From NCBI GenBank assembly GCA_964502225.1, contig CAZCUC010000006.1, forward strand, positions 1-55,220: DNA of 55,220 nucleotides, read 5' to 3'. The notes below the pieces were generated by a model. That model searched no databases. It was not told where the DNA came from and saw only the letters and a program-made list of their open reading frames with translations. How positions within the stretch are numbered: the stretch's first letter is position 1; each line of letters opens with the position of its first letter. A program made the translations under genes and the position numbers. Below, piece after piece: positions 3,872 to 51,774 of this stretch. This DNA is from an uncultured Pseudomonadales bacterium. Lineage in GTDB: Bacteria > Patescibacteriota > Microgenomatia > UBA1400 > UBA12108.

Positions 3872-4873
3872 ATGAAGTTTGGTAAGCGTTTAGGGATAGA
3901 TCTGGGGACAGCCAATTCGCTCGTGTGGCTCGCTGGTGAAGGACTGGTTTTGAACGAACCCACTGTGGTGGCTGTGAACGTGGGTGATATGCGAGTGGTT
4001 GCGGTAGGCAACGAAGCCAAGACGATGTTGGGTCGTACCCCGGGCAATATTATCGCTAGTAGACCCATGAAAGACGGCGTGATCGCGGATTATGCAGTGA
4101 CTGAGGCAATGCTTAAGTATTTTATTACACGAGCCATAGGCTCGACTTGGCTGTTTAAACCAGACATTATGATTTGTGTGCCTGCAGGGTGTACCCAAGT
4201 AGAGAGGCGTGCCGCACAGGATGCCACGATTGCGGCAGGTGCCCGCCAAGTGTACTTGATCGACGAGCCACTGGCGGCCGCGATAGGGGCCGGGATCCCG
4301 ATTGCCGAGGCCTCGGGTAATATGATTTTGGATATAGGGGGCGGCTCGGCCGAGGCGGCCGTGATTGCACTGGGCGGGGTGGTCGTCCACAAAAGCGTGC
4401 GAGTAGGGGGGACGAAGCTGGATGAGGCGATCATTGATTTTGCTCGCAGGACCCATTCTTTGATAATCGGCGATCAAACTGCCGAAACCGTAAAAATAAA
4501 AATTGGCTCGGCCACAAAACTGGCTCGCGAAGAGAGTATGAACGTCAAAGGACGCGATAGTGTGACCGGCTTGCCGCGAACCGTGGTCTTTACCTCGAGT
4601 GATATCCACCAGGCTATGCAGAAACCGCTCTCCCAGATCGTCGGCGTAGTCAAGGCGGTACTCGAAGAAACTCCCCCAGAACTCTCGAGTGATATCATCG
4701 ATAAAGGTATTGTGATGAGTGGGGGTACCTCTACCTTGAGAAACCTGGATGCCCTCCTGACAAAAGAGGTCGGGGTACCGGCATATCTAGCCGAGGATCC
4801 GCTGTTTTGCGTGGTCAAGGGGACGGGGAGAGCGATCGAGAATATTGATAGTTACAGGCGAGCGCTAAGATAA
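3872..4873 (+). CDS. mreB: Rod shape-determining actin homologue MreB
   Basis: LGIDLGTANSLVW, DEPLAAAIGAG, ILDIGGGSAEAAVI and the GGTSTLRNLDALL actin/Hsp70-fold motifs. Length 333 aa. Confidence 0.95.
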   Translation: MKFGKRLGIDLGTANSLVWLAGEGLVLNEPTVVAVNVGDMRVVAVGNEAKTMLGRTPGNIIASRPMKDGVIADYAVTEAMLKYFITRAIGSTWLFKPDIMICVPAGCTQVERRAAQDATIAAGARQVYLIDEPLAAAIGAGIPIAEASGNMILDIGGGSAEAAVIALGGVVVHKSVRVGGTKLDEAIIDFARRTHSLIIGDQTAETVKIKIGSATKLAREESMNVKGRDSVTGLPRTVVFTSSDIHQAMQKPLSQIVGVVKAVLEETPPELSSDIIDKGIVMSGGTSTLRNLDALLTKEVGVPAYLAEDPLFCVVKGTGRAIENIDSYRRALR

Positions 4874-27000: not shown

Positions 27001-30000
27001 GATTTGATTTGGCGATGGTTTCTAATCTTGATAATTCTCTGGAGTTGGCTAATTTTTCGTGAGCGAGTGTTAATTTTTCGATTTCGGCTTTTTGACCGTT
27101 GCTGGCGAGTTCAGTGAGAGTTTTGTTGGCTTCATTTTTCGCTTGAGCGGGATCTTGGGCAATTCTGGTACTAGATTCTTCAGACAGAATAGATCTTTCT
27201 TGATTGGCTTTCTCTCTGCTGATACGAGCGAGATTCTCTTCGAAGGTTGTTTTTTCGGTAGAAGTTTTGAAGAGGGGATCTAGGATAAGCTCAACTCCGG
27301 TGGGGGCAGTTGCCTTTTTGCTAAAGAGGGCTTCACGTAGGCGAGTGAGGAGGGGAGGTGGTGGTGGAGGGGTGAGGGCGGCGATTTGCCGTGCTACTTC
27401 TGCGTGTTTGACTGTCGCTAACGCTAAATCTTCGCGAGCGGAAGCAAGAGACTCTTCCATTTGACGGCGAACAGAGCTATTAACTTTTTCGAGATTGTTT
27501 TCTAGTCCAGTAACTCGTTCTCTAGCCGTAGTAAGCTCGGCTTCGCGGAGTGCGAGTTCTTGTCGAGCAGTAGTGAGTGTAGGATTTTCTACAGGTTTGC
27601 TAAATACTTCTCGAAGGCGAGTGAGGACGCCAGAAGATTTTTCGTTAGCTGGTGGGGCCTGAGGTTTGACTGGGCTTTCGGCAATTTCTGGAGGTTTAAG
27701 TGCTGTGCCTGCCAATTCTTGAGCGCGAGCATATTCAATCTCTGCTTTGTTTAGATTTTCTCGCAGCTGTGGAGTGACCGCTTCCTTGTTGTTTTCGAGT
27801 GTAAGCCTGGCAGCATCAACTTTAACCTTGGCTTGTTCGAGTCTGATTTGCTCGGGTGATTTGATTTCGGTGAGGGTAGGGGTCGAGGCTGTTTTGGGTC
27901 CGGTAAGTTTGGCAACGAGCGGATCTTGGACAGCACCGGAGATACCCATGGCGCACATGGACATGGTGTCGATATTGGCAGGGCCCTCGAATACTTTGGA
28001 GCAGGCACTAATTCCAAAAGTAATGGCAGAAGCAGTGTGAATACCTTGAAGTGCTGAGCCTCCAGTTAGTGCAACTGTTCCAAGCTTGCCTTCGATCTGA
28101 GCAAGTTTTGCTACCAGCCCAAAGTTGGTACTGGCCAGCTTGCCAAAGGAAGCGGCGGCCATGAGGATGCCCGAGGTACAGTCGAGAGAAGTCGAGTTCT
28201 CTCCGCAAGCTTCGTAGGCCATTTTGCCAAAAGTCACAGCACCAAGGAATTCGGTTCCGATATTGCCTGCCACTATGGTTTTTTGAGCAAGAGAGAGTGT
28301 GGCCCCAGCTTCGGCTACGCCGACTAGGGAGTTGGCTAGTCCTAGGCCGGTACCTGCGACGGAGATGGTGGCAATCGCGATTGCAGTATGACAGGCCTCG
28401 CTCCCGGGAGCTTGGGTGCAAGCGTCGGTGGCGGTGCCAATCATCTGGGTGGAGGAAGCAATGCCAAATCCGGTGCCAAGGAATGCTCCTGCACTGGGAG
28501 CGAGAGGGAGGGCAACTGCAGTCGTGACGACAAAGGCGGCGTCGCCGCCCTGGATGATGCCTCCTGAGATTACCCCCCATTTATCGATAGGATTTTCTAA
28601 GCCCATGGCTGAACCAAATGTATCGGCAGATACAAGTCCAAAGGTAGCATTTGACATGCCAATCGACAGTATGGTGCGGGTCATGCCGTTTCCATTTGCT
28701 GACTCTAGCAATAGGTCATTGCCACGTTTGAAGCGGCCGGCTGTAAAGTTGTTCCAACCGAGGACAATATTGGTGCCAAAGTCTTGGCGGAGCTCTGTGA
28801 GGGCGGCTTCTTGGGCTACCCAGTCGGTGTTGGGGTCGGCCGCGAGTCGGTCGTAGTTGGCAGGGTCCATGTTTTGCAGGGTAAAGGCGATTCTCTCCTG
28901 TGACATGCTATTTTGGTAAATCTTGTTTTTCTGATTTTGGATATTGATCAAAGTGAGTTCTGGGTCGTTTGTGTAGGCGCTGAGGCTGGTCAAAGATTCG
29001 TCTACATTGTTGCAGTTGGCCCCACCTAGAGCGTTGCAGGTGGAGGCTAGGTAGAGCTCTTCTAGCTGGGGTACATAGGTGGCACCTGTTTGAGAGTTGT
29101 TGGTCAGTTTAGTGGCAGTTTTCTGTGCGTATTGTTGACACTGATCAATTGAGTTGGCCGGCGAACTACGACATGTTTTAAAGGCAAGGTCATACTCTGT
29201 CTGGTAGTTAACGGGAGCCGCCTGACTAAGTTTTTTCTTGGTTTGCTGGTTGGCGATGGCTTCGCAGTCTCCACGGCCCTGAGTATTTGTCATACAGGCC
29301 AGGTACTCTGTTTGATAAATGGCTTGGGTATCGATGGCGGTGCTCGTGATATTACCTGTTTGGCCCAGCTCGTACCTGCTAATGGCATAGTTGGCCTGTT
29401 TTTGCCGGTTGAGTTCTAATGCCTTTTCCGCACTAATGCCGATATCTTTGAGTAATCCTCCATCGAGTAAATATTTACATCGATCAGAACTGATACCTCG
29501 GCAATACTCCTGCGAAAGCTGTGCGCTAGTGGTGGTGAGATATTTTGCCACCATTTGGTTTTGCGCTAGTTGTTGTTTGGCTTGAGAGGCTAGATCTTTG
29601 TTGGTGAGTTTGTTTAAATAATCCTCGCGGACGAAGTTCATCCTACAGTCGCGGTCGTCACCACAGATGCTATTGGCGATATCGGAATTCGATTTGGAAG
29701 AATCGGCGAAGATTTTGACGAGTTCTAGATCTTTTTTGTAGTTGGCGATATTGGTATCTCGCGTGCTCAAGAGCTCGTGGAGGGTGGCGGAATCAGTGAC
29801 TAGTCCTCTCAGATAAGACTCGGCGGTCAAATCGCGGCATTCGCCAGGGTGAGCTGGGTCGCAACCGGCCAGGGCTTTGAGATCGGTAGTAGGACTCAAG
29901 AAAGCTTGAATTTTGGCCTGATATGCCTCCTGTGCTTGAGAGTTTTGTTGTTGATTGGCGATGATTTCTTCTTTAACTGCGGTATCAAAAACAGCAGAAT

Positions 30001-30814: not shown

Positions 30815-30820
30815 GATACC

Positions 30821-30850
30821 AATGTACACCCCTGGAAAATCGCTTGTCAA
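30821..30850 (-). promoter_or_regulatory. Promoter of the giant ORF: TTGACA-18-TACATT, with the ATG 6 nt after the -10 (leaderless)
   Basis: On the minus strand, ttgaca is at 30850-30845, tacatt at 30826-30821, and the ATG at 30814. Confidence 0.5.
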
Positions 30851-39597: not shown

Positions 39598-40134
39598 TTA
39601 AGCGGTTACAGCTTTCTTTTTGTTTACTGCAGATAGGGCGTAAACGAGGGATCTCATCGGAGCTACCAAGATACCGACCATGTTTCTAGCAGGGTTACTG
39701 AGTGTACCCAGGAGTTTGGCGATCAATTCTGCCTTGCTCGGGAGGGCGGCTAGTTGCATAACTTTTTCCATCGATAACACATCTTTGCCCAGTATACCGG
39801 CCTTTACTTTGGGTAGATTCTTGTCGTTGGCCTTGCCAAACTCGACTAAAGCTTTGAGAGGGGCGACCGCGTCGTTTTCGGCGAGCAGGGTGAGGTTGGG
39901 ACCGGTCAGCTCTTTGTCTAGACTACTCACGTCGTAACCTTTGCTGGTCATGGCGATTTTGAGGAGGCTGTTTTTGGCGACGGTGATCGTGCCACCGGCG
40001 GCTCTGACTTTGTCGCGCAGATCGACCTGCTCTTTGACGGTGAGGCCGGCATAGTCAGCGATAAAGATGGCTTCGACTTTGTCTAGTTTTTCGACTAGCT
40101 CGGCGACGGCCGCGATGTTTTGTTTGTTTGGCAT
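39598..40134 (-). CDS. rplJ: 50S ribosomal protein L10
   Basis: KQNIAAVAELVEKLDKVEAIFIADYAGLTVKEQVDLRDKVRAAGGTITVAKNSLLKIA. Start set at ATG 40134. Confidence 0.93.
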   Translation of the reverse strand: MPNKQNIAAVAELVEKLDKVEAIFIADYAGLTVKEQVDLRDKVRAAGGTITVAKNSLLKIAMTSKGYDVSSLDKELTGPNLTLLAENDAVAPLKALVEFGKANDKNLPKVKAGILGKDVLSMEKVMQLAALPSKAELIAKLLGTLSNPARNMVGILVAPMRSLVYALSAVNKKKAVTA

Positions 40135-40196
40135 ACTTCGATTCCTTTCAGTCACTCAGTACTTTCAGTACTATTTATAATATTTGCTTTTAGGCC

Positions 40197-40223
40197 AAAA
40201 AAAAGCTGTCCCCCGCGACAGCT
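40197..40223 (-). promoter_or_regulatory. Hairpin plus U-tract within the rplJ 5' leader (candidate L10-leader attenuator/terminator)
   Basis: On the minus strand, agctgtc-gcgggg-gacagct is followed by tttttttt. It lies about 60 nt upstream of the rplJ ATG and downstream of the candidate promoter. Confidence 0.5.
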
Positions 40224-40295
40224 AAATACTACATCTTGTAGTTTTTTGCCTTCGTCCCGACTTATGTATCGCGGGATGTCTAGAGGTATGGGGAT

Positions 40296-40324
40296 AGTAT
40301 AGCATGAAGATTAAAGTTACACAA
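40296..40324 (-). promoter_or_regulatory. Candidate rplJL promoter TTGTGT-17-TATACT
   Basis: On the minus strand, ttgtgt is at 40324-40319 and tatact at 40301-40296. This implies a leader of about 160 nt. Confidence 0.45.
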
Positions 40325-40374
40325 TATACATACTCATTGCATATTCTGATGAATAGTGATATATTCTTTGACCG

Positions 40375-40641
40375 ATGAAAAAGAGACTAACCCAAATTGA
40401 AATAGCGCTAGGATTATTAGTGTTTGCAACAATGGCATGCTCATACCAATCCACCAGAGAAGGTATACTCGTGACGACGGGTGAGTCTGCAGGTAAGACT
40501 TCAAGTGCAGAATTGGATTATCTAATACGTGATACTAACCGTTGTGATCTATTTACATATAATCTTTATGAAAATAATGCTTGGCGTCAAGAAAAAGCGG
40601 TTGTGTGCAACTACGATAGTTTGTTGAAATATAGAAAATAG
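40375..40641 (+). CDS. Small putative lipoprotein
   Basis: MKKRLTQIEIALGLLVFATMAC is a signal peptide with a lipobox-like Cys. TGaTATATT (40357-40365) lies 9 nt before the ATG. Confidence 0.55.
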   Translation: MKKRLTQIEIALGLLVFATMACSYQSTREGILVTTGESAGKTSSAELDYLIRDTNRCDLFTYNLYENNAWRQEKAVVCNYDSLLKYRK

Positions 40642-40668
40642 GTCACTTGGCGACACTTTTTTGTCATA

Positions 40669-41481
40669 TTAAATGTTTGGATAAATCATCGGGAGAAAGA
40701 GGTAATCAATTATAGACTCTAGCCGGTGAGATACCTCTGTTGCATGAGGATTGCTGGCAAATTTGATCTGGGGATTAACGTGAGCATGAGACAATACTTT
40801 GTATCTATACACCGATGACTCATCTTTAATTAAGTTGATTTTGACTAAAGAAAAGACTCCGTCTGTATGGACTACCACAATTATTGGAGTCTCGACGTTA
40901 CTTGTCTCAAAAACATCAAGATGAAAATTTGGTCGATTTTTTTGAATAATTGTGGTTATTTGAGATAGTTTCTCACGGATTGATTCGAGAGTAACTGACT
41001 CGTTTGACACCAGGCTAGATTCTGGTCTGGAGTAGCCAACTCCAGATATAGAGAGTGAAGAATCTTGAATTGTAAGGCGTGGCTTGAGCTTGGTTGGCAG
41101 TGATAAATGCTCGAGAGTAAATAATGCGGCTTTGATCTTTCCAGGAGTATTTGAGTCAGGGGTAATTCTTACTCCGTAGCGATTCTGCTCGTCGTTTGTA
41201 AATATAAGCGAAAAACTCTGGCTTTTGCCAGGAAAGTTAGTGAGATTAAGAGAAAATGAGCTGGCACTAGAGCTGGTAATATTGGCAGATGGGAGAATGG
41301 GGATAAATTTCTCGTCTTTATTGCGAGGTGCATAATGCAGAGCTAAAGCTAGATTAGCGAGTGATTCCAGATGTGAATAGGGTAGAGATAGTGATGTCTC
41401 TGTTTCTCTGAGGCCAGATTCCTTTCCTGGAGATAGACTCTTGAGGATCTCAAGGTAGCTGGTGAGCTCAGTGAGTTTCAT
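40669..41481 (-). CDS. Hypothetical protein (island)
   Basis: 270-aa ORF and the last gene of the four-gene minus-strand string 43236->40669. No motif recognised. Confidence 0.55.
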   Translation of the reverse strand: MKLTELTSYLEILKSLSPGKESGLRETETSLSLPYSHLESLANLALALHYAPRNKDEKFIPILPSANITSSSASSFSLNLTNFPGKSQSFSLIFTNDEQNRYGVRITPDSNTPGKIKAALFTLEHLSLPTKLKPRLTIQDSSLSISGVGYSRPESSLVSNESVTLESIREKLSQITTIIQKNRPNFHLDVFETSNVETPIIVVVHTDGVFSLVKINLIKDESSVYRYKVLSHAHVNPQIKFASNPHATEVSHRLESIIDYLFLPMIYPNI

Positions 41482-41485
41482 GAGG

Positions 41486-41974
41486 TTATCTGCGACGACT
41501 CATGTTTGTGCCGACGTAACCAGTCTTCATATCATTATCTTTCATCCAGCTATGCATTTTCCCGTAGGCCTCTCCAGCTTGGTAGGCTAAAACCGGGAAT
41601 ATTGAGATTGCAGCTAGTCCAATGACTCCCATCAAGACACCAATTCCAGTTTCTCCGGCATCACGTGAATGGCTGAGAACCTCGACGGCTTTATTCAAAA
41701 AAACTACACCACCAATAGCAGGGGCAAGAGTCCCGACGACTTTGTTAAAAATTTCGGCACCCTTGAGGAGCCAGCGGGGAGTTTCGTGGACTGAGTATCC
41801 GATGGTACCTAGCCCACCTAGGATAGCAGGGCGGTCTTTTATAGATCCATCATGAACGCCAGTTCGATGAGCTTCAGCAATGTCTTCTGGAGATCTGCCT
41901 GCAGCGAGAAAATTCCACTGATTGAGATGTGCTGATCTCCAATTACCCTCTGGATTACTATTACGTATTTTCAT
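41486..41974 (-). CDS. Gly-rich membrane protein (island)
   Basis: 162 aa. Hydrophobic Gly/Ala-rich helices GTLAPAIGGVVFL and GIGVLMGVIGLAAISIFPVLAY. Confidence 0.55.
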   Translation of the reverse strand: MKIRNSNPEGNWRSAHLNQWNFLAAGRSPEDIAEAHRTGVHDGSIKDRPAILGGLGTIGYSVHETPRWLLKGAEIFNKVVGTLAPAIGGVVFLNKAVEVLSHSRDAGETGIGVLMGVIGLAAISIFPVLAYQAGEAYGKMHSWMKDNDMKTGYVGTNMSRRR

Positions 41975-42025: not shown

Positions 42026-42325
42026 TTATTGAGCAGGGGTTTCTGCAGGAGCAGCTGCTTCTTCGGCAGGGGTTTCAGCATCAACTTGTTCGCCTACCTG
42101 TTGTTTCAAATCCAAACCTTCGAGTGTGGCTTTGGCTGAAAGATATTTGTTCATATCAGCGAGCTTGTCGATTACGATTCCTAGTGCTTCTACATTTCCT
42201 GCGGTAGGATCGTCTTGAACAGTTTTTGCCATTTCGACTATTTGATTTTTGATATCCTCATGCAGCTCTTCATCAGCCATAACATCACTGATTAGATCAT
42301 TTATTGTGTCATTTAGATCGGTCAT
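42026..42325 (-). CDS. Small acidic helical protein (island)
   Basis: 99 aa, Asp/Glu-rich and predicted all-helical, with a low-complexity tail AETPAEEAAAPAETPAQ. Confidence 0.5.
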   Translation of the reverse strand: MTDLNDTINDLISDVMADEELHEDIKNQIVEMAKTVQDDPTAGNVEALGIVIDKLADMNKYLSAKATLEGLDLKQQVGEQVDAETPAEEAAAPAETPAQ

Positions 42326-42363: not shown

Positions 42364-43236
42364 TTATTTTGCGATACCTTTTGCCATTTTTTCACTTGCT
42401 GCTCGAGTTACTGCCTGAATGGCTTTTTTATTCTTCAGAGCTTGTGCTTCTTTTGTGGCTTTTGCTGCATCTTTGCTGTTGTAGCTCTTTTTCTTAAGTC
42501 TTTCGAGCTCTTTTTTAGCTGCGGCAAGTTCTTTGCTGGATGTCTTAAACTTGTTGTTCATTTCTTTGAGGTTTTGTGCTCTAAGCTTTAGTGCTTCTCT
42601 TGTATCTTCGACTCGAATTCCTCTTTCTTTGTTAGCATACTCTAGTAGACCAGAGGCTCTTTTTGCGTACTTTTCAGCTTTGGTTGCTAGTCTCGTAGCT
42701 CTCCAGTCGAATACGGCCTCAGTTACTTTGTTCCAGCCTTCTTTAACTTTCTCCCATGGTCGAACTAAACCAGCGAGTCGCTCTCCAATTCTTTGATATG
42801 TCCCGGTACCAGGATTGATAGCATCAACATTTGCTGCAACTCCTTTGTGGATTTCCCGCGCTCCGTCTCTTCCACCTTTTGCCTTTACTATGGCTAATTC
42901 GCTTGCTACTCGCCCCATAACAACTTTATTGAAAGAAACGGCTTTGTCACCATCAACCGTTGATCTATGGTCGTACCATTTTTGCATAGAATCCAGAATC
43001 CAGGAACCCAGATTCAAAACTCCTTCTCCTGCACCAGTCGCTTTGAGTTCTCGCTGCGCATGTCTTACTTCAAAACTACTACCTGCGCTTTCAACTTTTT
43101 TCTCTCCAAGATTTCTCACAACTTCTTTGGTTATTCCAATCGCAGCTCCAAAAGGGGTATTTTGTTCTGCGGCTACATTTAATGCTTCGGCTCTTTGGTC
43201 TGCATATTTTTTAGCGTCAAATCCATTTTCTGCCAT
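42364..43236 (-). CDS. Helical, Lys/Ala-rich coiled-coil protein (island)
   Basis: 290 aa, with a C-terminal coiled-coil (KELAAAKKELERLKKK...). Candidate promoter TTGACA(43301-43296)-17-CATACT. Confidence 0.55.
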   Translation of the reverse strand: MAENGFDAKKYADQRAEALNVAAEQNTPFGAAIGITKEVVRNLGEKKVESAGSSFEVRHAQRELKATGAGEGVLNLGSWILDSMQKWYDHRSTVDGDKAVSFNKVVMGRVASELAIVKAKGGRDGAREIHKGVAANVDAINPGTGTYQRIGERLAGLVRPWEKVKEGWNKVTEAVFDWRATRLATKAEKYAKRASGLLEYANKERGIRVEDTREALKLRAQNLKEMNNKFKTSSKELAAAKKELERLKKKSYNSKDAAKATKEAQALKNKKAIQAVTRAASEKMAKGIAK

Positions 43237-43374
43237 AGGTTTTTTCCTTTTATATAATCTTTAATCTATTTAAGTATGTAATTAATTTTGACAAGTGTCA
43301 AGGGCTCTACAAACCATTGCTTTGGATACAATAAATGCGATACTATTAAGGTTAGTTAGTAATTAAAAAATTAT

Positions 43375-44805
43375 ATGCACGAGAATCGATCTGGTCTAAA
43401 TATTTCGAAAATGGTAGATAGTACCAGCCTCGAGCTTATGGCAGCGAGAGAAATCGGAAAAATCAGTTTTGGGAAACATATTGAATCAACAGCTCTCGCA
43501 TTACAGACTAGAACTGATGGGTGGTTAGGGAGTAATTTCGCTACCTCATGGTCTGTCTTTGGTGAAAGAGATGGAAAACACCCAGAGATAGCTGAGAGTA
43601 GAAAAATGGATTTTTTAACAGACTGTGCACCTGAGGCGGCTGAAATTTTTCAACTAATGAAAGGGGAAGATTGGTTTCAAAAACTTGACTCTGATGAACT
43701 GGCTCACTTCAAGGATATCGCAGAACATGGGTATAGGAAAAATATTTTAGGATCTTTGATAGCCAAGGACCTTGGAGTGGAAAAACAAACAAAAGTAACA
43801 ATTCCTGCGGACTCAGCAAAGAGACTAGGGCTTGTACACAAAGCCATGTCTTATGACGCTGAGCGTCGAAATGTGGAGGATAGATTGCATCTCTTAACGC
43901 AGTTTATAGGTGAAAAGGGAATTGAGGGTGAGACAGTCCAGATTAGATCATTCAAAACCAATGAAATGGTCAGGAGAGCCGAGCAAATAATTGAGCGATC
44001 ACATGCTCGTAGAACAGCCGCGAGAGAATTGTTTGAACTGCCAGGGGAGCTTAAACAATCTGAGCAAGATCGCTCAAGAAACGTCGAACTCAACAAAATT
44101 TTCCCGAGCTTGATTGATAGCGCCTCTATGATAAGTGAAAAATCGAACCGTAGTCTGATGGCAAGGTTGGGAGTCACGCGTGATGATCGAGGTTCGTACG
44201 TCGTGACCATGGATCAAAAGCCGAACGACGGCAAGCACGCGATGCGGATGGTGCTTGATCAGAGAATCCGTAATAATCAAGTAAAGGAAGTAAATAACAA
44301 TATCGAGGAAGTTATTAAAGCCGGAAGATTAAAAGAGGATATTTTACAAGATGGTGCTGATTTACTCGTACTTAGAGCGATAGAAACTGATAGTGCGACA
44401 GACTGTGGAAGATTCTTCCAGGAAGAAGTGAGAAGAACAATTCTGAGGGAGAAAATGCATGAGTTAGTCTTAATTGGAGAGCATGATCCCCCCTCTTATC
44501 AAGATGAAACTGATAGAGAAGTTATGATAGGGGCTGGGAGGGCACTACAAGAAATGTACTTTATGGCGGAAGGGGTGCTCCGGACTATGGCCAGGATGGT
44601 TGATTCCGCCTTCACTATCAACTTTAAACCAGGTGGATTCATGCATAGAATCACTGGTTCATTGTCTGGCAAGATGAGAGGAATTGCTGACAATTTACTT
44701 GACTCCAACTTATCTGTACCAAAGATAGTCCCGCCAGGACGTGACCCTAGTCGATGGGGAGATAAACTGGCGATGCCTGACTTTTTTGCAGAATACGATC
44801 AATAG
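43375..44805 (+). CDS. Island family E protein, copy 1 (476 aa), function unknown
   Basis: Paralogous to 48471-49847. Shared blocks are DGKHAMRMVLDQRIRN / DGERAMHMVVNQRIRN, DCGRFFQEEVRR / DCGRVFQERVRR, and C-terminal MPDFFAEYDQ / MPDLFAEFEG. Confidence 0.65.
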   Translation: MHENRSGLNISKMVDSTSLELMAAREIGKISFGKHIESTALALQTRTDGWLGSNFATSWSVFGERDGKHPEIAESRKMDFLTDCAPEAAEIFQLMKGEDWFQKLDSDELAHFKDIAEHGYRKNILGSLIAKDLGVEKQTKVTIPADSAKRLGLVHKAMSYDAERRNVEDRLHLLTQFIGEKGIEGETVQIRSFKTNEMVRRAEQIIERSHARRTAARELFELPGELKQSEQDRSRNVELNKIFPSLIDSASMISEKSNRSLMARLGVTRDDRGSYVVTMDQKPNDGKHAMRMVLDQRIRNNQVKEVNNNIEEVIKAGRLKEDILQDGADLLVLRAIETDSATDCGRFFQEEVRRTILREKMHELVLIGEHDPPSYQDETDREVMIGAGRALQEMYFMAEGVLRTMARMVDSAFTINFKPGGFMHRITGSLSGKMRGIADNLLDSNLSVPKIVPPGRDPSRWGDKLAMPDFFAEYDQ

Positions 44806-44830
44806 TATAAGTATATAAGGGAGCAATATC

Positions 44831-44989
44831 ATGACCACAAAAAATGATGACAATATCCAAGAAGAACTTTTGGAGGCAAATCTTTTGTCTTCAAAAATAA
44901 AAACTGAACTCGCTCAGTCGAAAGCTCAAAACGACTATCTAGAGAAAATTGTAAAAAAGATGGAACAAGTAGTACTAGGAGGGAGATAA
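44831..44989 (+). CDS. 52-aa coiled-coil micro-protein, copy 1 (not in the ORF track)
   Basis: AAGGGAG SD 8 nt upstream. Translation MTTKNDDNIQEELLEANLLSSKIKTELAQSKAQNDYLEKIVKKMEQVVLGGR. It shares K(A/K)QNDYLE with 49850-50014. Its stop lies 1 nt before the next ATG. Confidence 0.6.
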   Translation: MTTKNDDNIQEELLEANLLSSKIKTELAQSKAQNDYLEKIVKKMEQVVLGGR

Positions 44990-44990
44990 T

Positions 44991-46463
44991 ATGGCAAATC
45001 ATCCAACGGCAGAATTCAATTACCCACTAGAGGACTATTCCTCCGATCTCATTGATAAAAGTCTGGGTCCAATTTTGTCCGACAAAGATGTGGTAAAGGG
45101 TTTCCAGCTGGGTAAAGCGAATGTAGATACTCGGAGCAAAGATAATATTATTAAGGCCGATTATCTCCGAGACTTAAAAAGTGCGGTTGAATCAGGTAAA
45201 TTAAGGGAAAAAACTCTCGAAAATGGGATTGTTGCAGACATTAGAGAAAAATGTATTGAGCTAAATCTGATTCTCGTGAAAGAGTACGGGTATGATTGGA
45301 ATGTACGCGCGCCAGAGACAGTGCTCATGAAGGCGTGGGAACTTGCTGAGGCAGTAAAACGTAGAGAAGTTCATGGTTATGATGTGAATCAAGAGCTTCG
45401 ACCGTACCTAGAGAAGCCACAATTTAATAAGGATGGCGGAGAAAGGATATATTTTCCAGAAGATAAAAACGAGAGAAGAAAATTATTGGGGAAAGCCAAA
45501 TATTATAATGAGGCGAGAATTGACGCTAGATCTAGAATGCTTGATATAGCAGATCTTGTAATAGATGATCGGGACTATGCTAATGGTTCGTATGATGCTG
45601 AATTACTTAGAATCCCACTTGCTGAAGCTTGGACTAGAGAGGATAAAGAAAGAGTAGACAATTGTGTGTATGAATTAGATTACTACGAACAAAGATTGAA
45701 GCTTAGCGAAGTAAATTCTCGAATCGAAAGAGGTGACGTTCCTGAGTTGGCCACTATCGCCGAGAAAATCCGAAGTATAGCCTATGTATCTGATGAAGAT
45801 GAATTGTTGCATGGGGTGGGGATAGGAGTTAATGGTAAGCAAGAGTATCAACTCAATTGGCCAGGTGGTGATGGCGGAGCTAATTTGCTTATTAAAGGTC
45901 GGATGGGACAATCTGAATTGATGCAAATTTGTCAGAGATGTGCAGAGGACATCCCTACTGGATCAGAGAAGAATGCTGATATTATGCTCATGAATGCGAT
46001 AGGCATGCAAGAATTGTCTGCCATGGAGGTAGCAGGTAAATCAATCATCGAGGGGGAGATCTATCGACAACGAGGAATTGAGTTAAATGAATCTATAACA
46101 GAAGATCGGGAGCGTTTTGATCAACATCTAAATAGAGTCAAAAGTGAGCCAGGAATGACAAAGGATCAGCTCGCTCAGTATATATATGAGGCAGCGCGTC
46201 AAATAAATGATGTGTTGTATAAAATTTCTGCATCGATGACTAATGCGATTAGGTTTGTAGCAATAGATAATGGTGGTAAATATCGGGGAGTAGCGGAGAA
46301 AGTATCGAGTTGGATAGATCGATTGTCGAGTTGGGGAGCTCCCAAGATGGACAAGTATTTAGCAAAAAAAACAAATATTGAACCAAGAAACTTGAGTGAG
46401 TCTGATGCGTCGCTCCAGAGAGGTCGGGTTAGTTTCAATTTACCTAGCATCGAGGAGGTTTAA
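44991..46463 (+). CDS. Island 490-aa protein, possibly a divergent family E member
   Basis: GGAGGGAG SD upstream. The GVGIGVNGKQEYQLNWPGGDGGANLLIKGRMG block resembles LGVGRDEDGHWSFNSIIPGTDGERAMHMVVNQRI in the E copies. The similarity is weak and judged by eye. Confidence 0.6.
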   Translation: MANHPTAEFNYPLEDYSSDLIDKSLGPILSDKDVVKGFQLGKANVDTRSKDNIIKADYLRDLKSAVESGKLREKTLENGIVADIREKCIELNLILVKEYGYDWNVRAPETVLMKAWELAEAVKRREVHGYDVNQELRPYLEKPQFNKDGGERIYFPEDKNERRKLLGKAKYYNEARIDARSRMLDIADLVIDDRDYANGSYDAELLRIPLAEAWTREDKERVDNCVYELDYYEQRLKLSEVNSRIERGDVPELATIAEKIRSIAYVSDEDELLHGVGIGVNGKQEYQLNWPGGDGGANLLIKGRMGQSELMQICQRCAEDIPTGSEKNADIMLMNAIGMQELSAMEVAGKSIIEGEIYRQRGIELNESITEDRERFDQHLNRVKSEPGMTKDQLAQYIYEAARQINDVLYKISASMTNAIRFVAIDNGGKYRGVAEKVSSWIDRLSSWGAPKMDKYLAKKTNIEPRNLSESDASLQRGRVSFNLPSIEEV

Positions 46464-46466
46464 TTT

Positions 46467-46640
46467 ATGAATAAAATTACGAATGATGACGTAGTAAGCA
46501 CGGATCAAATAATTGGAGGAATGGATAGTGCACTAAATACTCTCGAAGAAATGGAGAGAATGATTGAGCTGAAGAAAAAGAACAACGCAACTCTTGCCAA
46601 GATGGTCGATGAGTTGAGTGATGAAGATAGTGACAGATAA
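46467..46640 (+). CDS. 57-aa coiled-coil micro-protein, copy 2 (not in the ORF track)
   Basis: GAGGAGG SD within the end of the upstream gene. Translation MNKITNDDVVSTDQIIGGMDSALNTLEEMERMIELKKKNNATLAKMVDELSDEDSDR. Confidence 0.55.
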   Translation: MNKITNDDVVSTDQIIGGMDSALNTLEEMERMIELKKKNNATLAKMVDELSDEDSDR

Positions 46641-46672
46641 TGGTATGACTTAATAAGTTTGGTATCAACTTA

Positions 46673-47299
46673 TCATGCCAGTAGACGAGGGATGTGAGTG
46701 GAAACTGAGTTTAATCTGCCTTGTTTATTGAGAGCCAAGACGGCAAGAAGCCGACGGGCGTAAAAAGAAGTTCCGTCGAAGATGGTGTTTTCGTCCGTTT
46801 CGAGAAAGCCGTGGATGATTTGAGGTTTCGATATCATGGGATTTCGATGAATCTGGTATGGCTCCTTGATCAAGTAGATACCAGGGCTGTAATGGAGATG
46901 GGGAGTATTTAGACTAAGATTTTTTGGTATAACGATGCCTTTTGCGTGTGAGTACACATAAGAGTATCCAGGCGAGTATTCGGCGTCTACACCTTGCCCG
47001 CTTAGTGCAAAATGGCTATATGAGTCTGATTGATTCAAGATAAAAAGTTCACTTGTTGCATGTTCCACAAGAGATCTGGCATTGTCTTTGCTCAGGTCAC
47101 CCCACCAAATTTTGACTCCAAATTCGTTATATATTGAACTATTTGGGCTCGTGACAAGCTCGGAAGATGATCGTACTTGCTGACCATCGCGAAACCCTAA
47201 AGCCTGTAGACTTTCCCAAGTGTCTGCTGATGCTTGCGATGTAACTGGTGGATAGTCTGGCGCGAATTTTTTCCGTAAATAGTCAAATGATCTTCTCAT
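46673..47299 (-). CDS. Hypothetical protein (island)
   Basis: 208-aa ORF on the opposite strand, between the two plus-strand modules. Confidence 0.5.
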   Translation of the reverse strand: MRRSFDYLRKKFAPDYPPVTSQASADTWESLQALGFRDGQQVRSSSELVTSPNSSIYNEFGVKIWWGDLSKDNARSLVEHATSELFILNQSDSYSHFALSGQGVDAEYSPGYSYVYSHAKGIVIPKNLSLNTPHLHYSPGIYLIKEPYQIHRNPMISKPQIIHGFLETDENTIFDGTSFYARRLLAVLALNKQGRLNSVSTHIPRLLA

Positions 47300-47360
47300 G
47301 TTTTTATCTTAACATCTAGGCATGGGTAGGTGCGACTACTTTTAATGATATATTATTGGT

Positions 47361-48449
47361 ATGCCTGAGAGTAAAGCAAATAATTTTCTTTTTGCACCAC
47401 TAGAAAAATCTTTGGAGAATGTTGTAGAAAAAAAGCCGTCAAAATTTGAGAATTCCATGGTTCGAATCGAAACAGCGCTAAAAAAGCTACTTAAGTTGAG
47501 AGATAGCGATTTTATAGAGCGGAAAAGGAAGCGGGAGGAAGTGGAAGGCAAGGTAGATTTGGATAAGAGCCTAGTCAACAAACTTGAGATTCCCTCAGCA
47601 GCAGTTGAATTACCTACAAAGATAACTACTGACGCGAGAGAGGATTTTAAGAAAACTTTCCCAAAGTGGGCGGCTGAAATTGAGCGAACTCCAGTGAAAT
47701 ATATGGTCGGGTATAACAAACTCACAGATGACGATAAGAAAAACTTTTTTGAATTGCTAACAGAAAAAGGGACACTAATGGGAGAAGCGTATCCATTTTA
47801 CGAACTACTAACTCAAAAGTTATCCGAAAAGGCCGCATCATCACACAAGGGGGCTTGGGGGAAAATATTTGGATTTATGGCCAAGGCAACTGGATGGATG
47901 TCATATAGGTTGGATATGCCAGTAGCAAGAGAGTGGAATAACGTAGAATCTCATCTGACGGCTGTGTATGGCAAAGAAAGAACGACCGAGTTGATCGAAG
48001 ACTTATATTTTGGTGATAAGGATGAATACCAGGGATTTTTACAGGCATGTGAGATGGCCAAGCTTGATTTTGTGGGAATGTCAGAGAGAGCTAAGACGCA
48101 CTCATGGTATACCAACACGCTGTACAAAAGAATTATCGAAAATCCAAAAATCCTCAACAATCCGCTGGTAGTTGGAGGATTAAACTTACCTGGGAAAATA
48201 CATGACGTCTCGACCCTAATGATTACCGCTACCACTCTAGGAGTAGGTTCAGCTATTGCAACTGCTGGAGCGCTTATCAACACTGCTCCCCTAGATTATC
48301 TTATGACCAACCTGGCACTAGGAGGACTTGCTGGTATTGCAGCAGTAGGTATAGGTATGGGAGGGATTGGTATTATGTTTCACGAATTGACGCATATATA
48401 CGGGGGCAATTTTCGGAGGAAGTTGCGGGAAATAGGTGAGAAAAAGTAA
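47361..48449 (+). CDS. Island protein with a helical N-terminal half and a Gly-rich C-terminal membrane domain
   Basis: TGaTATATT (47346-47354) lies 6 nt before the ATG. C-terminus TLGVGSAIATAGALINTAP...LALGGLAGIAAVGIGMGGIGIMFHELTH. Confidence 0.6.
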   Translation: MPESKANNFLFAPLEKSLENVVEKKPSKFENSMVRIETALKKLLKLRDSDFIERKRKREEVEGKVDLDKSLVNKLEIPSAAVELPTKITTDAREDFKKTFPKWAAEIERTPVKYMVGYNKLTDDDKKNFFELLTEKGTLMGEAYPFYELLTQKLSEKAASSHKGAWGKIFGFMAKATGWMSYRLDMPVAREWNNVESHLTAVYGKERTTELIEDLYFGDKDEYQGFLQACEMAKLDFVGMSERAKTHSWYTNTLYKRIIENPKILNNPLVVGGLNLPGKIHDVSTLMITATTLGVGSAIATAGALINTAPLDYLMTNLALGGLAGIAAVGIGMGGIGIMFHELTHIYGGNFRRKLREIGEKK

Positions 48450-48470
48450 TAATTGCGGTATTATGTAACT

Positions 48471-49847
48471 ATGGCAGAGAAAGGTAGAGAGTTACTTAGT
48501 CAAGGGAAGTCTAGTGAACTGAGTTTTCGGTTGGCGACAGAGGGTGTACAAGTAAACAAGAAAGTTGCGAGAAGTGAGATAGACAGGGTTGGTGAGTTAA
48601 GCTCTGGTATGGATATAGCTTTCCAAAATTTGTGGGAAGACAAGTTTAATACGGCTTACGGTGCCTTTAACGCTACGGCAGATATTCTCAAAGAAAAGGA
48701 AGATTTACGTGGTTTTGTTGATCAAGTAGCTCCAGAAGCAGTATCAATGATGGTGACAGCCTACGGAAAGGAATGGTGGAAAGGTATAGATGCTGAGGAT
48801 CTCATCTTTGTCCAAGACATTGCTGAGAGCAATTATCGCCGCGATAAATTAGCAGAAAATATCACGGATCAGTTAGATTGGAAAGAAGATGGTATCCCTA
48901 CCTTGAAGTCGGGACATGTGGACAAGCTAAGATTGCTTCATACTGTGCTCGCATATGATGATGCTGGATCGGATAGTCGGATGGTCTTACGCTACTTTGC
49001 TGAACGAATGAAGTATAAAAATACTGCCAGCAATCCTCATGTTGCACTGGATAAAATGGGCGTGGCCACAGATCGGGTCAGGAAAATGTTTGAGTGGGAA
49101 GGCGAGGCAACTAGTGAGGAGGGGATGAACCAAGAATTGGCTTCAATATTTGGCGACGTTCTAAATAATGCTAATATGTTAGATGATCAGGGACGAGCGC
49201 AAGTTGCAAGTAAACTGGGAGTAGGACGTGACGAAGATGGGCACTGGTCATTCAACAGCATTATTCCCGGTACGGATGGTGAGCGGGCAATGCATATGGT
49301 TGTAAATCAAAGAATACGCAATAAAGGAATAAGAGAGAATAACCAAAAACTTAGAGAGGTTTTGAAGAAGGATGGCCCCGAAAAGGTAGAGCTGATGAAG
49401 TATGGTATGGACGAGCTTGTACTCGACTTATTTACTCAGGAAACGGCATTGGACTGCGGAAGGGTTTTCCAGGAGAGAGTGCGTAGAGTGATCATTGACG
49501 AACGGATTAAAGAAATACGATCTTTGGATGAACGGCGATCTCTACATACCGTAGCGAGTGAAAGAATATTCCAGACTATCACCAAGGTAGGGGCGGAGAT
49601 AGCCTATTTTGTGCAAGATATTACAAAAATGATGGCAGAGGCAGGTAATAGCTTGCTGGATCGGGTAAGTAAGGGGGGATTTTTGGAAAAGGTGATTGGG
49701 ACAGCAAGCAGGGGATGGCAGAATGTTTCTGAGGTTGCAAAAGATATGACGGATGATATCCCGAGTGATTTTCCTGATTTGAGGCGTCGTAGACAACGGA
49801 GGGGACCACTGGATATGCCAGATTTATTTGCAGAGTTTGAGGGCTAG
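48471..49847 (+). CDS. Island family E protein, copy 2 (458 aa), function unknown
   Basis: Paralogue of 43375-44805 (see the shared blocks listed there). Start set at ATG 48471; the track uses TTG 48453. Confidence 0.65.
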   Translation: MAEKGRELLSQGKSSELSFRLATEGVQVNKKVARSEIDRVGELSSGMDIAFQNLWEDKFNTAYGAFNATADILKEKEDLRGFVDQVAPEAVSMMVTAYGKEWWKGIDAEDLIFVQDIAESNYRRDKLAENITDQLDWKEDGIPTLKSGHVDKLRLLHTVLAYDDAGSDSRMVLRYFAERMKYKNTASNPHVALDKMGVATDRVRKMFEWEGEATSEEGMNQELASIFGDVLNNANMLDDQGRAQVASKLGVGRDEDGHWSFNSIIPGTDGERAMHMVVNQRIRNKGIRENNQKLREVLKKDGPEKVELMKYGMDELVLDLFTQETALDCGRVFQERVRRVIIDERIKEIRSLDERRSLHTVASERIFQTITKVGAEIAYFVQDITKMMAEAGNSLLDRVSKGGFLEKVIGTASRGWQNVSEVAKDMTDDIPSDFPDLRRRRQRRGPLDMPDLFAEFEG

Positions 49848-49849
49848 AT

Positions 49850-50014
49850 ATGGTTAAAATTAAAGTAGATCCAAAGAATACGCGCTCATTGCTAGTTGAG
49901 GCGTTAGGAGTCAACGAGCAGGTGAAGGAAGAGTTAAGACAACTAAAGAAGCAAAACGATTACTTGGAGAGCTTGCTGGGTACTGCTGAGGAAAATTTGC
50001 TGAAAGATAGGTAA
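49850..50014 (+). CDS. 54-aa coiled-coil micro-protein, copy 3 (not in the ORF track)
   Basis: The ATG lies 2 nt after the upstream stop. Translation MVKIKVDPKNTRSLLVEALGVNEQVKEELRQLKKQNDYLESLLGTAEENLLKDR. Confidence 0.6.
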   Translation: MVKIKVDPKNTRSLLVEALGVNEQVKEELRQLKKQNDYLESLLGTAEENLLKDR

Positions 50015-50116: not shown

Positions 50117-50815
50117 TTACAACGATTGGCCTGAGAGATCTTTAAGAAACCAGCGTGCCTCTGACAATGGTGCCGCGCCTACATTGCCTCCATCAGGACC
50201 CATCATCATGTGGGTAATATCTGTTTCATGCACTAGGAATGCATTGAGCGAACGGGTATCTGCAAGTCGCCCAAGGAAAATATTACATAAGGAAAGTTGC
50301 TTTTCTTGAGGCAAGGCATCTACGTTGGTAAATATTACGGTTTGAAATTTGACGCTTTCTCTCTGCTTCATTTGAGCTAGAGTTGCTCTAGCTTCAACAA
50401 TATTCAGTGGATCTTTGCGATTTGGCGGTTTTATGCTATAGAGCGTAGCGAAATCATTGATTACTTTATCTACAACTGCGACAATCCAAGGATATTTGTC
50501 ATCATCAGTTTTTGTCAGGTCTTTACAGTTGATGATAATCAAAGCCGGCGATATGTCTCGGTTGATATCACCAGAAATTAGATCGTTTAATCGAGCTCTA
50601 GCGGTTGAGAAGCTTTTGACTTTAGGAGGGTGTTGTTCGCGTAGCATGGTTGCATAGGCGGCAGCGACTCGGGCAGATTCTGTTGCTGACTTCGATTCCA
50701 TTTTGAGACTGTAGTTACGGCCGTCATAGAGAAACATTCTCATGGCATCTGCCTCTACTCCTCTTAGTTGTTCTGCTGCTAGTTCTGCTGGGTGAATTTC
50801 TTTTTTGGTTGTCAT
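50117..50815 (-). CDS. Hypothetical protein (island edge, directly downstream of rplA)
   Basis: 232-aa ORF. A TATAAT box (50828-50823, minus strand) lies 7 nt before the ATG at 50815. Confidence 0.55.
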   Translation of the reverse strand: MTTKKEIHPAELAAEQLRGVEADAMRMFLYDGRNYSLKMESKSATESARVAAAYATMLREQHPPKVKSFSTARARLNDLISGDINRDISPALIIINCKDLTKTDDDKYPWIVAVVDKVINDFATLYSIKPPNRKDPLNIVEARATLAQMKQRESVKFQTVIFTNVDALPQEKQLSLCNIFLGRLADTRSLNAFLVHETDITHMMMGPDGGNVGAAPLSEARWFLKDLSGQSL

Positions 50816-50841
50816 GCCAGGTTATTATATACTCTTGAGGT

Positions 50842-51774
50842 TTAGCTTAGTTGTAGCTTAATACCTGGTGACATCGTGCTGGCCAGCGTGGCCTTGGTGA
50901 CGTTTTTGAGTTTGACGGCCTCAAGGAGAGCCTTGATATTGGCGACCAATTCTTCTTCTTTTTGGTCGATCTTGCCCACAGTCACGTGCATGAGAGGGAA
51001 TTTGGCTTCGGCTTTGACGACAGTTTTGCCTGCCTCAAATTCTTTGGCTTTTTTCTCTGGATCGGGGGTGACAGTGCCAGCCTTGGGCGATGGCATGAGA
51101 CCTTTGGGACCGAGGACTTTGGCGTACTTGGCTAGCTTGGGCATGAAAGCGGGGGAGGTGACCAAGATGTCGAACTCGATTTTGCCTTTCTCAATATCTT
51201 TGAGGAGCTCATCGGAGACGATGGCGACACGTTTGGCGGCTCCGGCCATGTGAGGGAAAGTGAGCTCGACCCGAGTAGGTGTATCTTTGGTCACTAGATT
51301 CAAGTGGAGGGTGACGGTCGAGGTAAACTTGGTGATGTTGCCTGATTTGACTAGTTTGACCGCTTCGGTGATCTCGTATTTCTTTTGTGGATCGACTTTG
51401 GATTTGGCGGCGCGGATAGCCTTGCCATTTTTGAAATCGTGGCGCTTGTTGGCTGGGCGGGGACCGACGGCTTCGATAGCCTCGTCGCCTGAGTGATCGT
51501 GGGACTCAACTGTTTCAGTGGAGGTTGATTCTAAAACTGGAGCAGTTAAATCGGGGGAATATTTGGCTCTGATTTCCTCGAGACCATTTTCGGTGATGCC
51601 CTGGATGGCAGTGATGTCGCCGTCGGTCATGTTGGTGAGTTGCTCTGGTTTGACGCGAGCGAGACGCAAGGCTTCGGCCACGTTTGGAGCGAGGTCAGTG
51701 TAGAGCTCTTCCCATTTGGTCATGGATTTTTGTTTCTTGGGGGCAACGGAGGTGCTATCTTTTCTTTTTCCCAT
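50842..51774 (-). CDS. rplA: 50S ribosomal protein L1 with an N-terminal extension of about 100 aa
   Basis: The L1 core runs from about KSKVDPQKKYEITEAVKLVK...PKGLMPSPKAGTVT...VGKIDQKEEELVANI. It is preceded by a Lys-rich tail and an HhH-like segment, LTNMTDGDITAIQGITENGLEEIRAKY. Confidence 0.9.
   Translation of the reverse strand: MGKRKDSTSVAPKKQKSMTKWEELYTDLAPNVAEALRLARVKPEQLTNMTDGDITAIQGITENGLEEIRAKYSPDLTAPVLESTSTETVESHDHSGDEAIEAVGPRPANKRHDFKNGKAIRAAKSKVDPQKKYEITEAVKLVKSGNITKFTSTVTLHLNLVTKDTPTRVELTFPHMAGAAKRVAIVSDELLKDIEKGKIEFDILVTSPAFMPKLAKYAKVLGPKGLMPSPKAGTVTPDPEKKAKEFEAGKTVVKAEAKFPLMHVTVGKIDQKEEELVANIKALLEAVKLKNVTKATLASTMSPGIKLQLS

Follow-up and report, generated by a model that had tools for sequence, protein, structure and literature searches.

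The 55,220-nucleotide (nt) contig CAZCUC010000006.1, referred to below in its whole length as the window, carries an island of genes between those of ribosomal proteins L10 (rplJ) and L1 (rplA). The core of the island is formed by three gene pairs. In each of them, a gene for a large helical protein (E1, M or E2) is followed by a gene for a micro-protein (m1, m2 or m3, respectively). Sequence comparison with related contigs leads us to view the island as a lineage-restricted accessory element of Microgenomates, housed in the rplA-rplJ spacer, variable among strains and vertically inherited. As far as homology searches reach, the family of the large proteins is without detectable relative and outside any known kind; we do not claim a demonstrated new mechanism. 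Contigs of relatives are labelled L001-L094 below, and P labels designate clusters of homologous proteins.

E1 (43375-44805, + strand, 476 residues) is all-helical and is the founding member of the E family. Its C-terminal tail is LAMPDFFAEYDQ (44767-44802, +). m1 (44831-44989, +, 52 residues), cognate to E1, begins 25 nt past it and has an AAGGGAG-type element upstream. M (44991-46463, +, 490 residues) begins 1 nt past the m1 stop codon. It is followed after 3 nt by its cognate m2 (46467-46640, +, 57 residues), which is preceded by GAGGAGG and contains the motif LEEMERMIELKKKNNATLAKMV. E2 (48471-49847, +, 458 residues, or 464 from an alternative TTG start at 48453) defines the E2 subfamily and ends with the tail LDMPDLFAEFEG (49809-49844, +). 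The gene of its cognate m3 (49850-50014, +, 54 residues) begins 2 nt past the E2 stop codon. A first-pass annotation of the same DNA had described these open reading frames (ORFs), with a tiny ORF closely following both E1 and E2. All of its ORFs and coordinates were reproduced by our ORF list.

The three large proteins are related to each other. E1 and E2 align by BLASTP with 149 bits (E 3e-44) and 27% identity over 397 residues. The shared blocks and nearly identical tails from which their paralogy had been proposed all lie within this alignment. The first-pass annotation also saw in M a possible divergent third member, and suggested aligning the three proteins pairwise and by profile. Both comparisons were run and paralogy was upheld. 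Pairwise BLASTP of M against E1 and E2 is not significant (E 0.08-0.1). Alignment of the two family profiles with hhalign (eight sequences for E, five for M) gives a probability of 97.0% and E 1e-10, over 365 collinear columns that place E positions 82-471 on M positions 83-484. An earlier run with smaller alignments gave 92.8%. As a control, the E and M profiles were compared with p290, an unrelated helical protein of the island, and reached 0.15% and 0.30%. Because the E and M profiles match collinearly while these controls do not score, M is, on profile evidence, a true third paralogue in the E family, if an old one. Hidden Markov models (HMMs) of the families find exactly these three modules and no further copies in the window. 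No internal repeats were found when E segments were aligned against each other with hhalign. Homologues of M are P0016 and P0017. Orthologues of E2 are P0003 in L090 and the gene at 15746-17065 of L003.

The micro-ORFs have the properties of true genes. One is found downstream of each E or M homologue for which downstream DNA is readable, in eleven contigs (L001, L002, L003, L004, L085-87, L088, L089, L090 and L091) and in the window. The conservation in relatives that the first-pass annotation had asked for is thus present, and the 57-residue ORF that it had noticed after M is kept after M in L003, L004 and L088. Across relatives, the micro-ORFs encode 51-59 residues and start between -8 and +28 nt from the stop of the large gene. 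A Shine-Dalgarno-like element, purine-rich and resembling GGAG, lies 5-12 nt upstream in 14 of 15 cases. Synonymous changes in m1 outnumber non-synonymous ones by 11 to 1 and 8 to 1 in two close relatives, and by 23 to 10 in a relative with 83% protein identity. The corresponding ratio of non-synonymous to synonymous rates (dN/dS) is 0.017-0.045 for m1 between the window and its relatives, and 0.06-0.07 for E1. In L090 the m3 orthologue (1734-1892) is intact, though the gene caller overlooked it. Because of their conservation in relatives, low dN/dS and Shine-Dalgarno-like elements, the micro-ORFs are to be regarded as real genes under purifying selection, on evidence that is strong for a computation.

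m1 and m3 share 40% identity (E 5e-8) and represent one type of micro-protein. The similarity of m2 to m1 and m3 is weak at the profile level (E 4.4e-4, probability 34%); it is collinear and aligns a single invariant Asn. The heptad register is continuous, and 8-10 of the 15-17 a/d positions are hydrophobic in the best register. All seven micro-proteins tested have the single invariant Asn at an 'a' position. By sequence, this combination of heptads with Asn at 'a' is that of a parallel leucine-zipper coiled coil. In GCN4-type zippers, the buried Asn at 'a' sets the register, the oligomer state and the choice of partner; by analogy, we infer that the Asn of the micro-proteins may play a similar role. 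Continuous heptads and the Asn at 'a' recall GCN4-type zippers and ZapB. Unlike these, the micro-proteins match no sequence family, and each zipper of the island is cognate to a specific large gene rather than being a free-standing transcription or division factor. A Pfam scan of m1-m3 and of the accessory ORFs of related islands returned no match.

Each type of large protein has its own type of micro-protein. The pattern LLEA...IKxELAQxKAQNDYLExIV accompanies every E, and LxxLEEMERxIELKKKxNxxLAKxV accompanies every M. This matching persists in otherwise rearranged islands. In L088 the order is reversed to M-m2-E-m1, and each micro gene is still beside its own large gene. The pairwise identities of large proteins and micro-proteins correlate with r = 0.89 (78 comparisons among 13 pairs), and the subfamilies agree (E1-m1, E2-m3 and M-m2). 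This shows that the two genes were duplicated and inherited together as a pair, even if common ancestry accounts for part of the correlation. With a type-matched ORF after every readable E or M homologue, the micro-partners are cognate and appear obligatory, in agreement with what the first-pass annotation had supposed. Between the window and L003, identity is 69-71% for m1 and 59-63% for m2, as compared with 38% for E1 and 40% for M. Being better conserved than their partners, the micro-proteins look more like structural subunits than like dedicated chaperones or immunity proteins.

A hydropathy scan of E1, E2 and M showed no signal peptide and no transmembrane or hydrophobic segment. E1 was modelled with AlphaFold2 from 11 family sequences; the mean predicted local distance difference test score (pLDDT) is 72.6 and the predicted TM-score 0.65. 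The fold is all-alpha, its long helices spanning 30-38 residues, and residues 40-360 are modelled with confidence. The sole beta element is a small charged hairpin at residues 267-277 (RLGVTRDDRGSYVV / GVTRDDRGSYVV). Confidence is low for helices 375-445, which are conserved, rather hydrophobic and poorly packed, and for the linker 446-460. Residues 404-454, just ahead of the tail, have a pLDDT <50. Conserved motifs of the E family are APEA, GxxW, AEHGY, RLGV, AMxMVxNQRxRN, GADLLVL, DCGRxFQExVRR, PGGF, VPxxxP and the terminal tail. A catalytic role of the DCGR cysteine is unlikely, judging from the alignments, because neither P0010 nor the M family retains this residue.

The acidic and aromatic C-terminal tail, pointed out as conserved between E1 and E2 in the first-pass annotation, is a feature of the whole E family. 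Of the 12 members with a C-terminus, 10 have the full motif, (M/F)PD(F/L/Y)F-x-(E/K)-(F/Y), which spans subfamilies with 24-30% identity elsewhere. In a six-frame translation of the window it occurs in E1 and E2 only.

Comparison with known families left the island without assignment, as the first-pass annotation had anticipated. Ten island proteins gave no match above noise in Pfam, NCBIfam, PHROGs and PADLOC. This includes PADLOC-DB 2.0 at E <= 0.01; in PHROGs nothing was significant, one match of p99 (E 0.008) being to a family of unknown function. Sequence-profile searches of the PDB with the E, M, p99, p290 and T362 families gave nothing meaningful, p99 retrieving designed helical repeat proteins only. 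No relative of E1 was found in IMG/VR contigs or by tblastn in phage genomes and plasmids. A full-text search of the literature returned nothing on such an island.

Foldseek comparison of the E1 model with the PDB and BFVD gave no match with E <0.1. The top matches, at noise level (TM-scores 0.09-0.18), are G-protein-coupled receptors, IpaD, ClyA and prenyl synthases, which are typically returned for an elongated helical query. The presence of ClyA and IpaD among them, the elongated helical bundle with one small beta hairpin and the tandem paralogues raise the idea of alpha-helical pore-forming or membrane-remodelling toxins of the ClyA or YaxAB type, with a small helper. ClyA and YaxAB/XaxAB are indeed all-helical proteins of 300-450 residues, with tandem paralogues. 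We hold this idea to be very improbable. The fold matches are not significant (E 0.2-0.9, TM-score 0.09-0.18; for ClyA, E 0.86-1.9, which is noise), the hairpin GVTRDDRGSYVV is charged rather than hydrophobic, and the hydropathy scan leaves E1, E2 and M without a hydrophobic membrane-insertion element.

Genes for membrane proteins accompany the pairs. p162 (41486-41974, - strand) is a small membrane protein with two transmembrane, glycine-rich helices. A p162-family protein is encoded in every E island with enough readable flank. T362 (47361-48449, +, 362 residues) ends with a glycine-zipper transmembrane segment followed by HELTH, and its gene immediately precedes E2 in the same orientation. 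The same order is found in L003, where a T362 that is 74% identical immediately precedes the E2 orthologue. A transmembrane gene immediately 5' of E and on the same strand is observed in three arrangements: 9590-9895 of L003, 824-1186 of L086, and T362-E2. In L003 and L085-87, E is immediately preceded by a short paralogue of p162. The transmembrane end of T362 was considered as a possible p162 paralogue and this was rejected, the comparison showing no homology. The HELTH sequence (residues about 341-345), right after the transmembrane segment and kept in L003, is an HExxH motif. T362 matches no peptidase family, and the 17 residues after the motif offer no evident third metal ligand.

The mechanism that we tentatively favour, while giving it less than an even chance, is that of a micro-subunit complex docked by its tail. 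We infer that the micro-protein would be a cognate, stoichiometric subunit of the large protein whose gene precedes it, zipping onto the C-terminal helices 375-445 or completing a helical bundle with them. Co-occurrence, close gene spacing and the agreement of subfamilies speak indirectly for such a complex. These helices are the candidate site because they are conserved yet poorly packed in the monomer model. The strong constraint on the micro-proteins fits this proposal because a small, interface-buried subunit would be tightly constrained. The C-terminal peptide, carried by a flexible linker, would then dock all E-type complexes to one shared partner. The candidate partners are the membrane proteins of the island (p162 family, T362), in which case a membrane-proximal assembly would result; any cellular role is suggested at the same conditional level.

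Several observations weigh against this mechanism. The full tail is missing from the two E members that diverge most, P0008 ending with MPDFFS and P0010 with MPDIVN, and in M the tail is reduced to an (L/M)P-x-(I/V) remnant. The co-variation of large and micro-proteins could be explained by shared ancestry alone. T362 and p162, the two candidate partners, are not homologous. Because p162 and p270 occur without E in L092, the membrane proteins are not dedicated to E; p290 and p99 likewise occur without E in L008. Finally, no homology or fold match points to a cellular role.

Some of the same features could also be those of a secretion substrate and its chaperone or adaptor, an analogy drawn in the first-pass annotation. 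E and M would be exported by a non-Sec route with the C-terminal peptide as export signal, and the micro-protein would either target them or maintain their competence for export. E and M are helical proteins devoid of signal peptides and transmembrane segments, and are encoded in tandem paralogous arrays; their extreme C-terminal peptide is conserved beyond a low-confidence linker; small membrane proteins adjoin; and the island varies among strains. Type VII pairs (PE-PPE, EsxA-EsxB, LXG with Lap1/Lap2) also combine a helical protein with an adjacent small helical partner, form tandem paralogous arrays in variable loci and carry a short conserved motif near the C-terminus. In the island, by contrast, the partner is encoded downstream and has only 51-59 residues. 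No Pfam match to WXG100, LXG, PE or PPE was obtained at E <= 0.1 / 0.05 among E1, E2, M, p99, p290, m1-m3 and others. An FtsK/SpoIIIE-type EssC/EccC ATPase was found neither in window ORFs of at least 120 residues outside the ribosomal genes nor among the called genes of the L088, L090, L092 and L094 contigs. Type VII secretion is not known from the candidate phyla radiation.

Type III tip proteins with their partners (LcrV-LcrG, PcrV-PcrG; IpaD) resemble the pairs in another way, an elongated helical protein being associated with a small coiled-coil partner. IpaD is the second-best fold match of E1, and this match is noise (E 0.27, probability 0.2, TM-score 0.12-0.18). The PDB profile search revealed no sequence similarity to IpaD or LcrV, and the window has no injectisome or flagellar gene. 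More generally, the island and six related islands contain no secretion ATPase, channel or known chaperone or other secretion component, and the micro-protein is more strongly conserved than the supposed substrate. No secretion chaperone as small as 52 residues is known. We therefore rate export of this kind as unlikely.

The docked complex that we favour has to be seen in an island that is modular. An HMM presence/absence matrix distinguishes at least three two-gene sub-modules able to stand alone, namely p290-p99 (alone in L008), p162-p270 (alone in L092) and the E/M-plus-micro pairs. p290 (42364-43236, -) is a basic (pI 9.9) helical protein, divergent to E1 and unrelated to E or M; it is divergent from the E/M operon in 6 of 7 readable upstream contexts. 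Downstream of it, p99 (42026-42325, -, 99 residues) is acidic (pI 4.1) and also helical. p270 (40669-41481, -, 270 residues) is downstream of p162 in every case; its AlphaFold2 model has a pLDDT of 40.7 and is unusable. In L002, a relative 76% identical, E1 is preceded not by p290 but by a 135-residue ORF on the same strand (290-697, +) containing GMSGGPIV, which is like the active-site motif of trypsin-like serine proteases.

Two ORFs are specific to the strain and without relative in any of the loci compared. p208 (46673-47299, -) is convergent with m2; its position is occupied by a 481-residue ORF in L003 and by a Ser/Thr kinase in L004. p232 (50117-50815, -), between m3 and rplA, matches no family. 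Where the window has p232, between the last micro-ORF and rplA, L004 (5023-6060, -) and L090 (1924-2958, -) carry a Ser/Thr kinase of about 345 residues. L004 is wholly without T362-E2-m3.

Identity between the window and L003 differs sharply by segment. The p290-E1-m1-M-m2 block (window 42364-46640, L003 7029-13198) is 36-40% identical, with micro-proteins at 63-69%. The figures are 69-89% for p162, T362, p99, p270 and E2, and 96-99% for rplJ and rplL. The island is thus a mosaic of segments with different histories or rates. L003 also contains, at 4523-4777 (-), an 84-residue fragment of rplA. It corresponds to the 3' end of the gene and shares 96% identity with residues 227-310 of the window L1. 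The fragment adjoins a frameshifted p270 gene, far from the usual position of rplA. It may be an assembly chimera, or a scar left when islands were exchanged through recombination in the conserved flanks.

Such variation would be expected of a conflict system, either anti-phage defence or toxin/immunity, in which the large proteins, diverging rapidly, are sensors or effectors, the micro-proteins regulators or antitoxins, and the membrane proteins effectors. Cargo swaps between close relatives (Ser/Thr kinase, p208, p232, the 481-residue ORF) and the much greater divergence of the p290-E1-m1-M-m2 block compared with other parts of the island would fit this idea, as would island proteins that are all without known relatives and a G+C content slightly below that of the flanks. 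Against it, PADLOC matches none of the ten proteins, and no enzymatic domain is present, be it of a nuclease, an NTPase or another kind. The micro-proteins, instead of co-diversifying with the large ones, are the best-conserved components. The family has no relatives in phage, plasmid and IMG/VR collections, and it is kept at a single locus across lineages, which argues for vertical inheritance and not mobility. On balance, a conflict system seems to us decidedly unlikely.

Members of the family are very scarce. Only two close relatives of E1 turned up when 5.8 billion clusters were searched by word index. Among 1.84 billion representatives, an exhaustive profile search gave 13 matches, two of them spurious, so that the family comprises about 11 real clusters at 50% identity, several of which are fragments. 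In 185,579 species-representative genomes, the E, M and m1 patterns all led to one contig, CAZBML010000008.1. Metagenome contigs added one short contig and viral contigs none. P0013 and P0014 were considered as relatives and set aside; they are large Ig-repeat proteins in which the repeated match is limited to a 27-residue stretch.

The L11 protein encoded in the window shares 96% identity with its counterpart in 'Microgenomates group bacterium MFD12003' and 84% with those of Woesebacteria metagenome-assembled genomes (MAGs). The host is, by this marker, a Microgenomates-group bacterium of the candidate phyla radiation, near Woesebacteria. The title 'uncultured Pseudomonadales bacterium' is also borne by the Microgenomates MAGs L003, L005, L008-L010, L012, L015, L018, L021 and L022. 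Their L11 proteins are 69-97% identical to that of the window, all but L022 being at least 82% identical. The 'Pseudomonadales' titles, including that of the island contig, appear to be a systematic mislabel.

Wherever flanks are visible (window, L003, L004, L085, L088, L089 and L090), the family is found between rplJ-rplL and rplA-rplK-nusG. In the window the boundaries of the island are rplJ (39598-40155, -), located by tblastn and having homologues annotated Ribosomal_L10 in L088 and L092, and rplA (50842-51774, -), which matches Pfam Ribosomal_L1 with E 2.1e-26. L1 of the island-bearing lineages is only 68-72% identical to that of the window. Occupation of the same locus in lineages so far apart indicates long vertical residence, as read from these sequences.

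The island is absent from most close relatives, in which rplA and rplJ are 64-200 nt apart (L009, L011, L012, L014, L018, L019, L020), and is therefore dispensable. The spacing is 1-2 kb in L008, L010, L015, L016 and L017, and 5.4-5.8 kb in L006 and L007. In these last two, the slot contains entirely different ORFs (109 residues; a 464-residue transmembrane protein; 89 residues; a 1008-residue helical protein), whose function is unknown. Over the Microgenomates relatives L006-L022, both spacers vary in length: rplA and rplJ are separated by anything between 64 nt and >10 kb, rplK and rplA by about 60 nt to 3 kb. The ends of the spacer in the window were inspected at 50815-50842 and 40155-40669.

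Dispensability bears on a further explanation, in which the large proteins would form a cytoplasmic structural or cytoskeletal scaffold for division or envelope, with the C-terminal peptide binding a housekeeping hub protein. Several bacterial cytoskeletal proteins recruit partners via a short C-terminal peptide on a flexible linker. The L-D-M-P-D-L-F stretch of the tail may loosely resemble D-I-P-x-F-L, the FtsZ C-terminal peptide. The long helical architecture and the strong purifying selection are also in line with a scaffold, and four island genes directly adjoin rplJ on its upstream side, in the same direction. Yet no coiled-coil-rich or cytoskeletal family is matched, and a gene set missing from most close relatives can be dispensed with. 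A scaffold is accordingly an explanation in which we place little belief. The probability remaining after the docked complex and its four rivals goes to something else altogether.

Other features of the window deserve mention. An Rfam scan found three tRNAs only, detecting in the island neither a ribosomal leader nor another RNA. Promoter-like sites are not enriched, and terminator-like sites are marginally above shuffled sequence. Between p270 and rplJ, an 88-residue ORF (40375-40641, +) has a lipoprotein-like N-terminus with a hydrophobic stretch ending in ATMAC. L092 and L094 have unrelated Thr/Pro-rich lipoprotein-like ORFs at this position. L1 of the window has 310 residues, and the Pfam L1 domain is limited to residues 176-303. 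An N-terminal extension of about 100 residues (MGKRKDSTSVAPKKQKSMT...) is conserved in L006, L088 and L089. Outside the island, a giant ORF (15092-30850, -, 5252 residues) contains two protein-kinase domains, one PP2C phosphatase domain and an MgtE_N-like stretch in its C-terminal half. Its N-terminal 2626 residues have no Pfam match. Similar giant genes come after dus (dihydrouridine synthase) in L092 and L094.

The candidate phyla radiation makes up a large share of bacterial diversity, and about half of its genes are without known function. Genes without known relatives are common in these genomes, and both host interaction and phage resistance are largely unknown in this group. Because the family is so rare (about 11 clusters; one of the 185,579 species representatives), the direct impact of the island is narrow unless its mechanism is general. 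Within these bounds, the island is a compact and well-delimited test case, with three cognate pairs, a candidate docking peptide and candidate membrane partners. It illustrates that the best-conserved component of a system can be a gene of 52 residues, of a size that gene callers sometimes overlook (as in L090). It also identifies the spacers of the normally compact rplK-rplA-rplJ-rplL cluster as a hotspot for strain-variable genes in this lineage. A bolder proposal, which we consider speculative and rather unlikely, is that E/M, the zipper micro-subunits and the membrane proteins together form a novel, Microgenomates-specific envelope or host-interaction apparatus. One version of it could be a new non-Sec export route, with the (M/F)PD(F/L)F C-terminal peptide as the targeting signal. 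Such an apparatus would be kept in a recombination-prone slot of the L11-L1-L10-L12 cluster.

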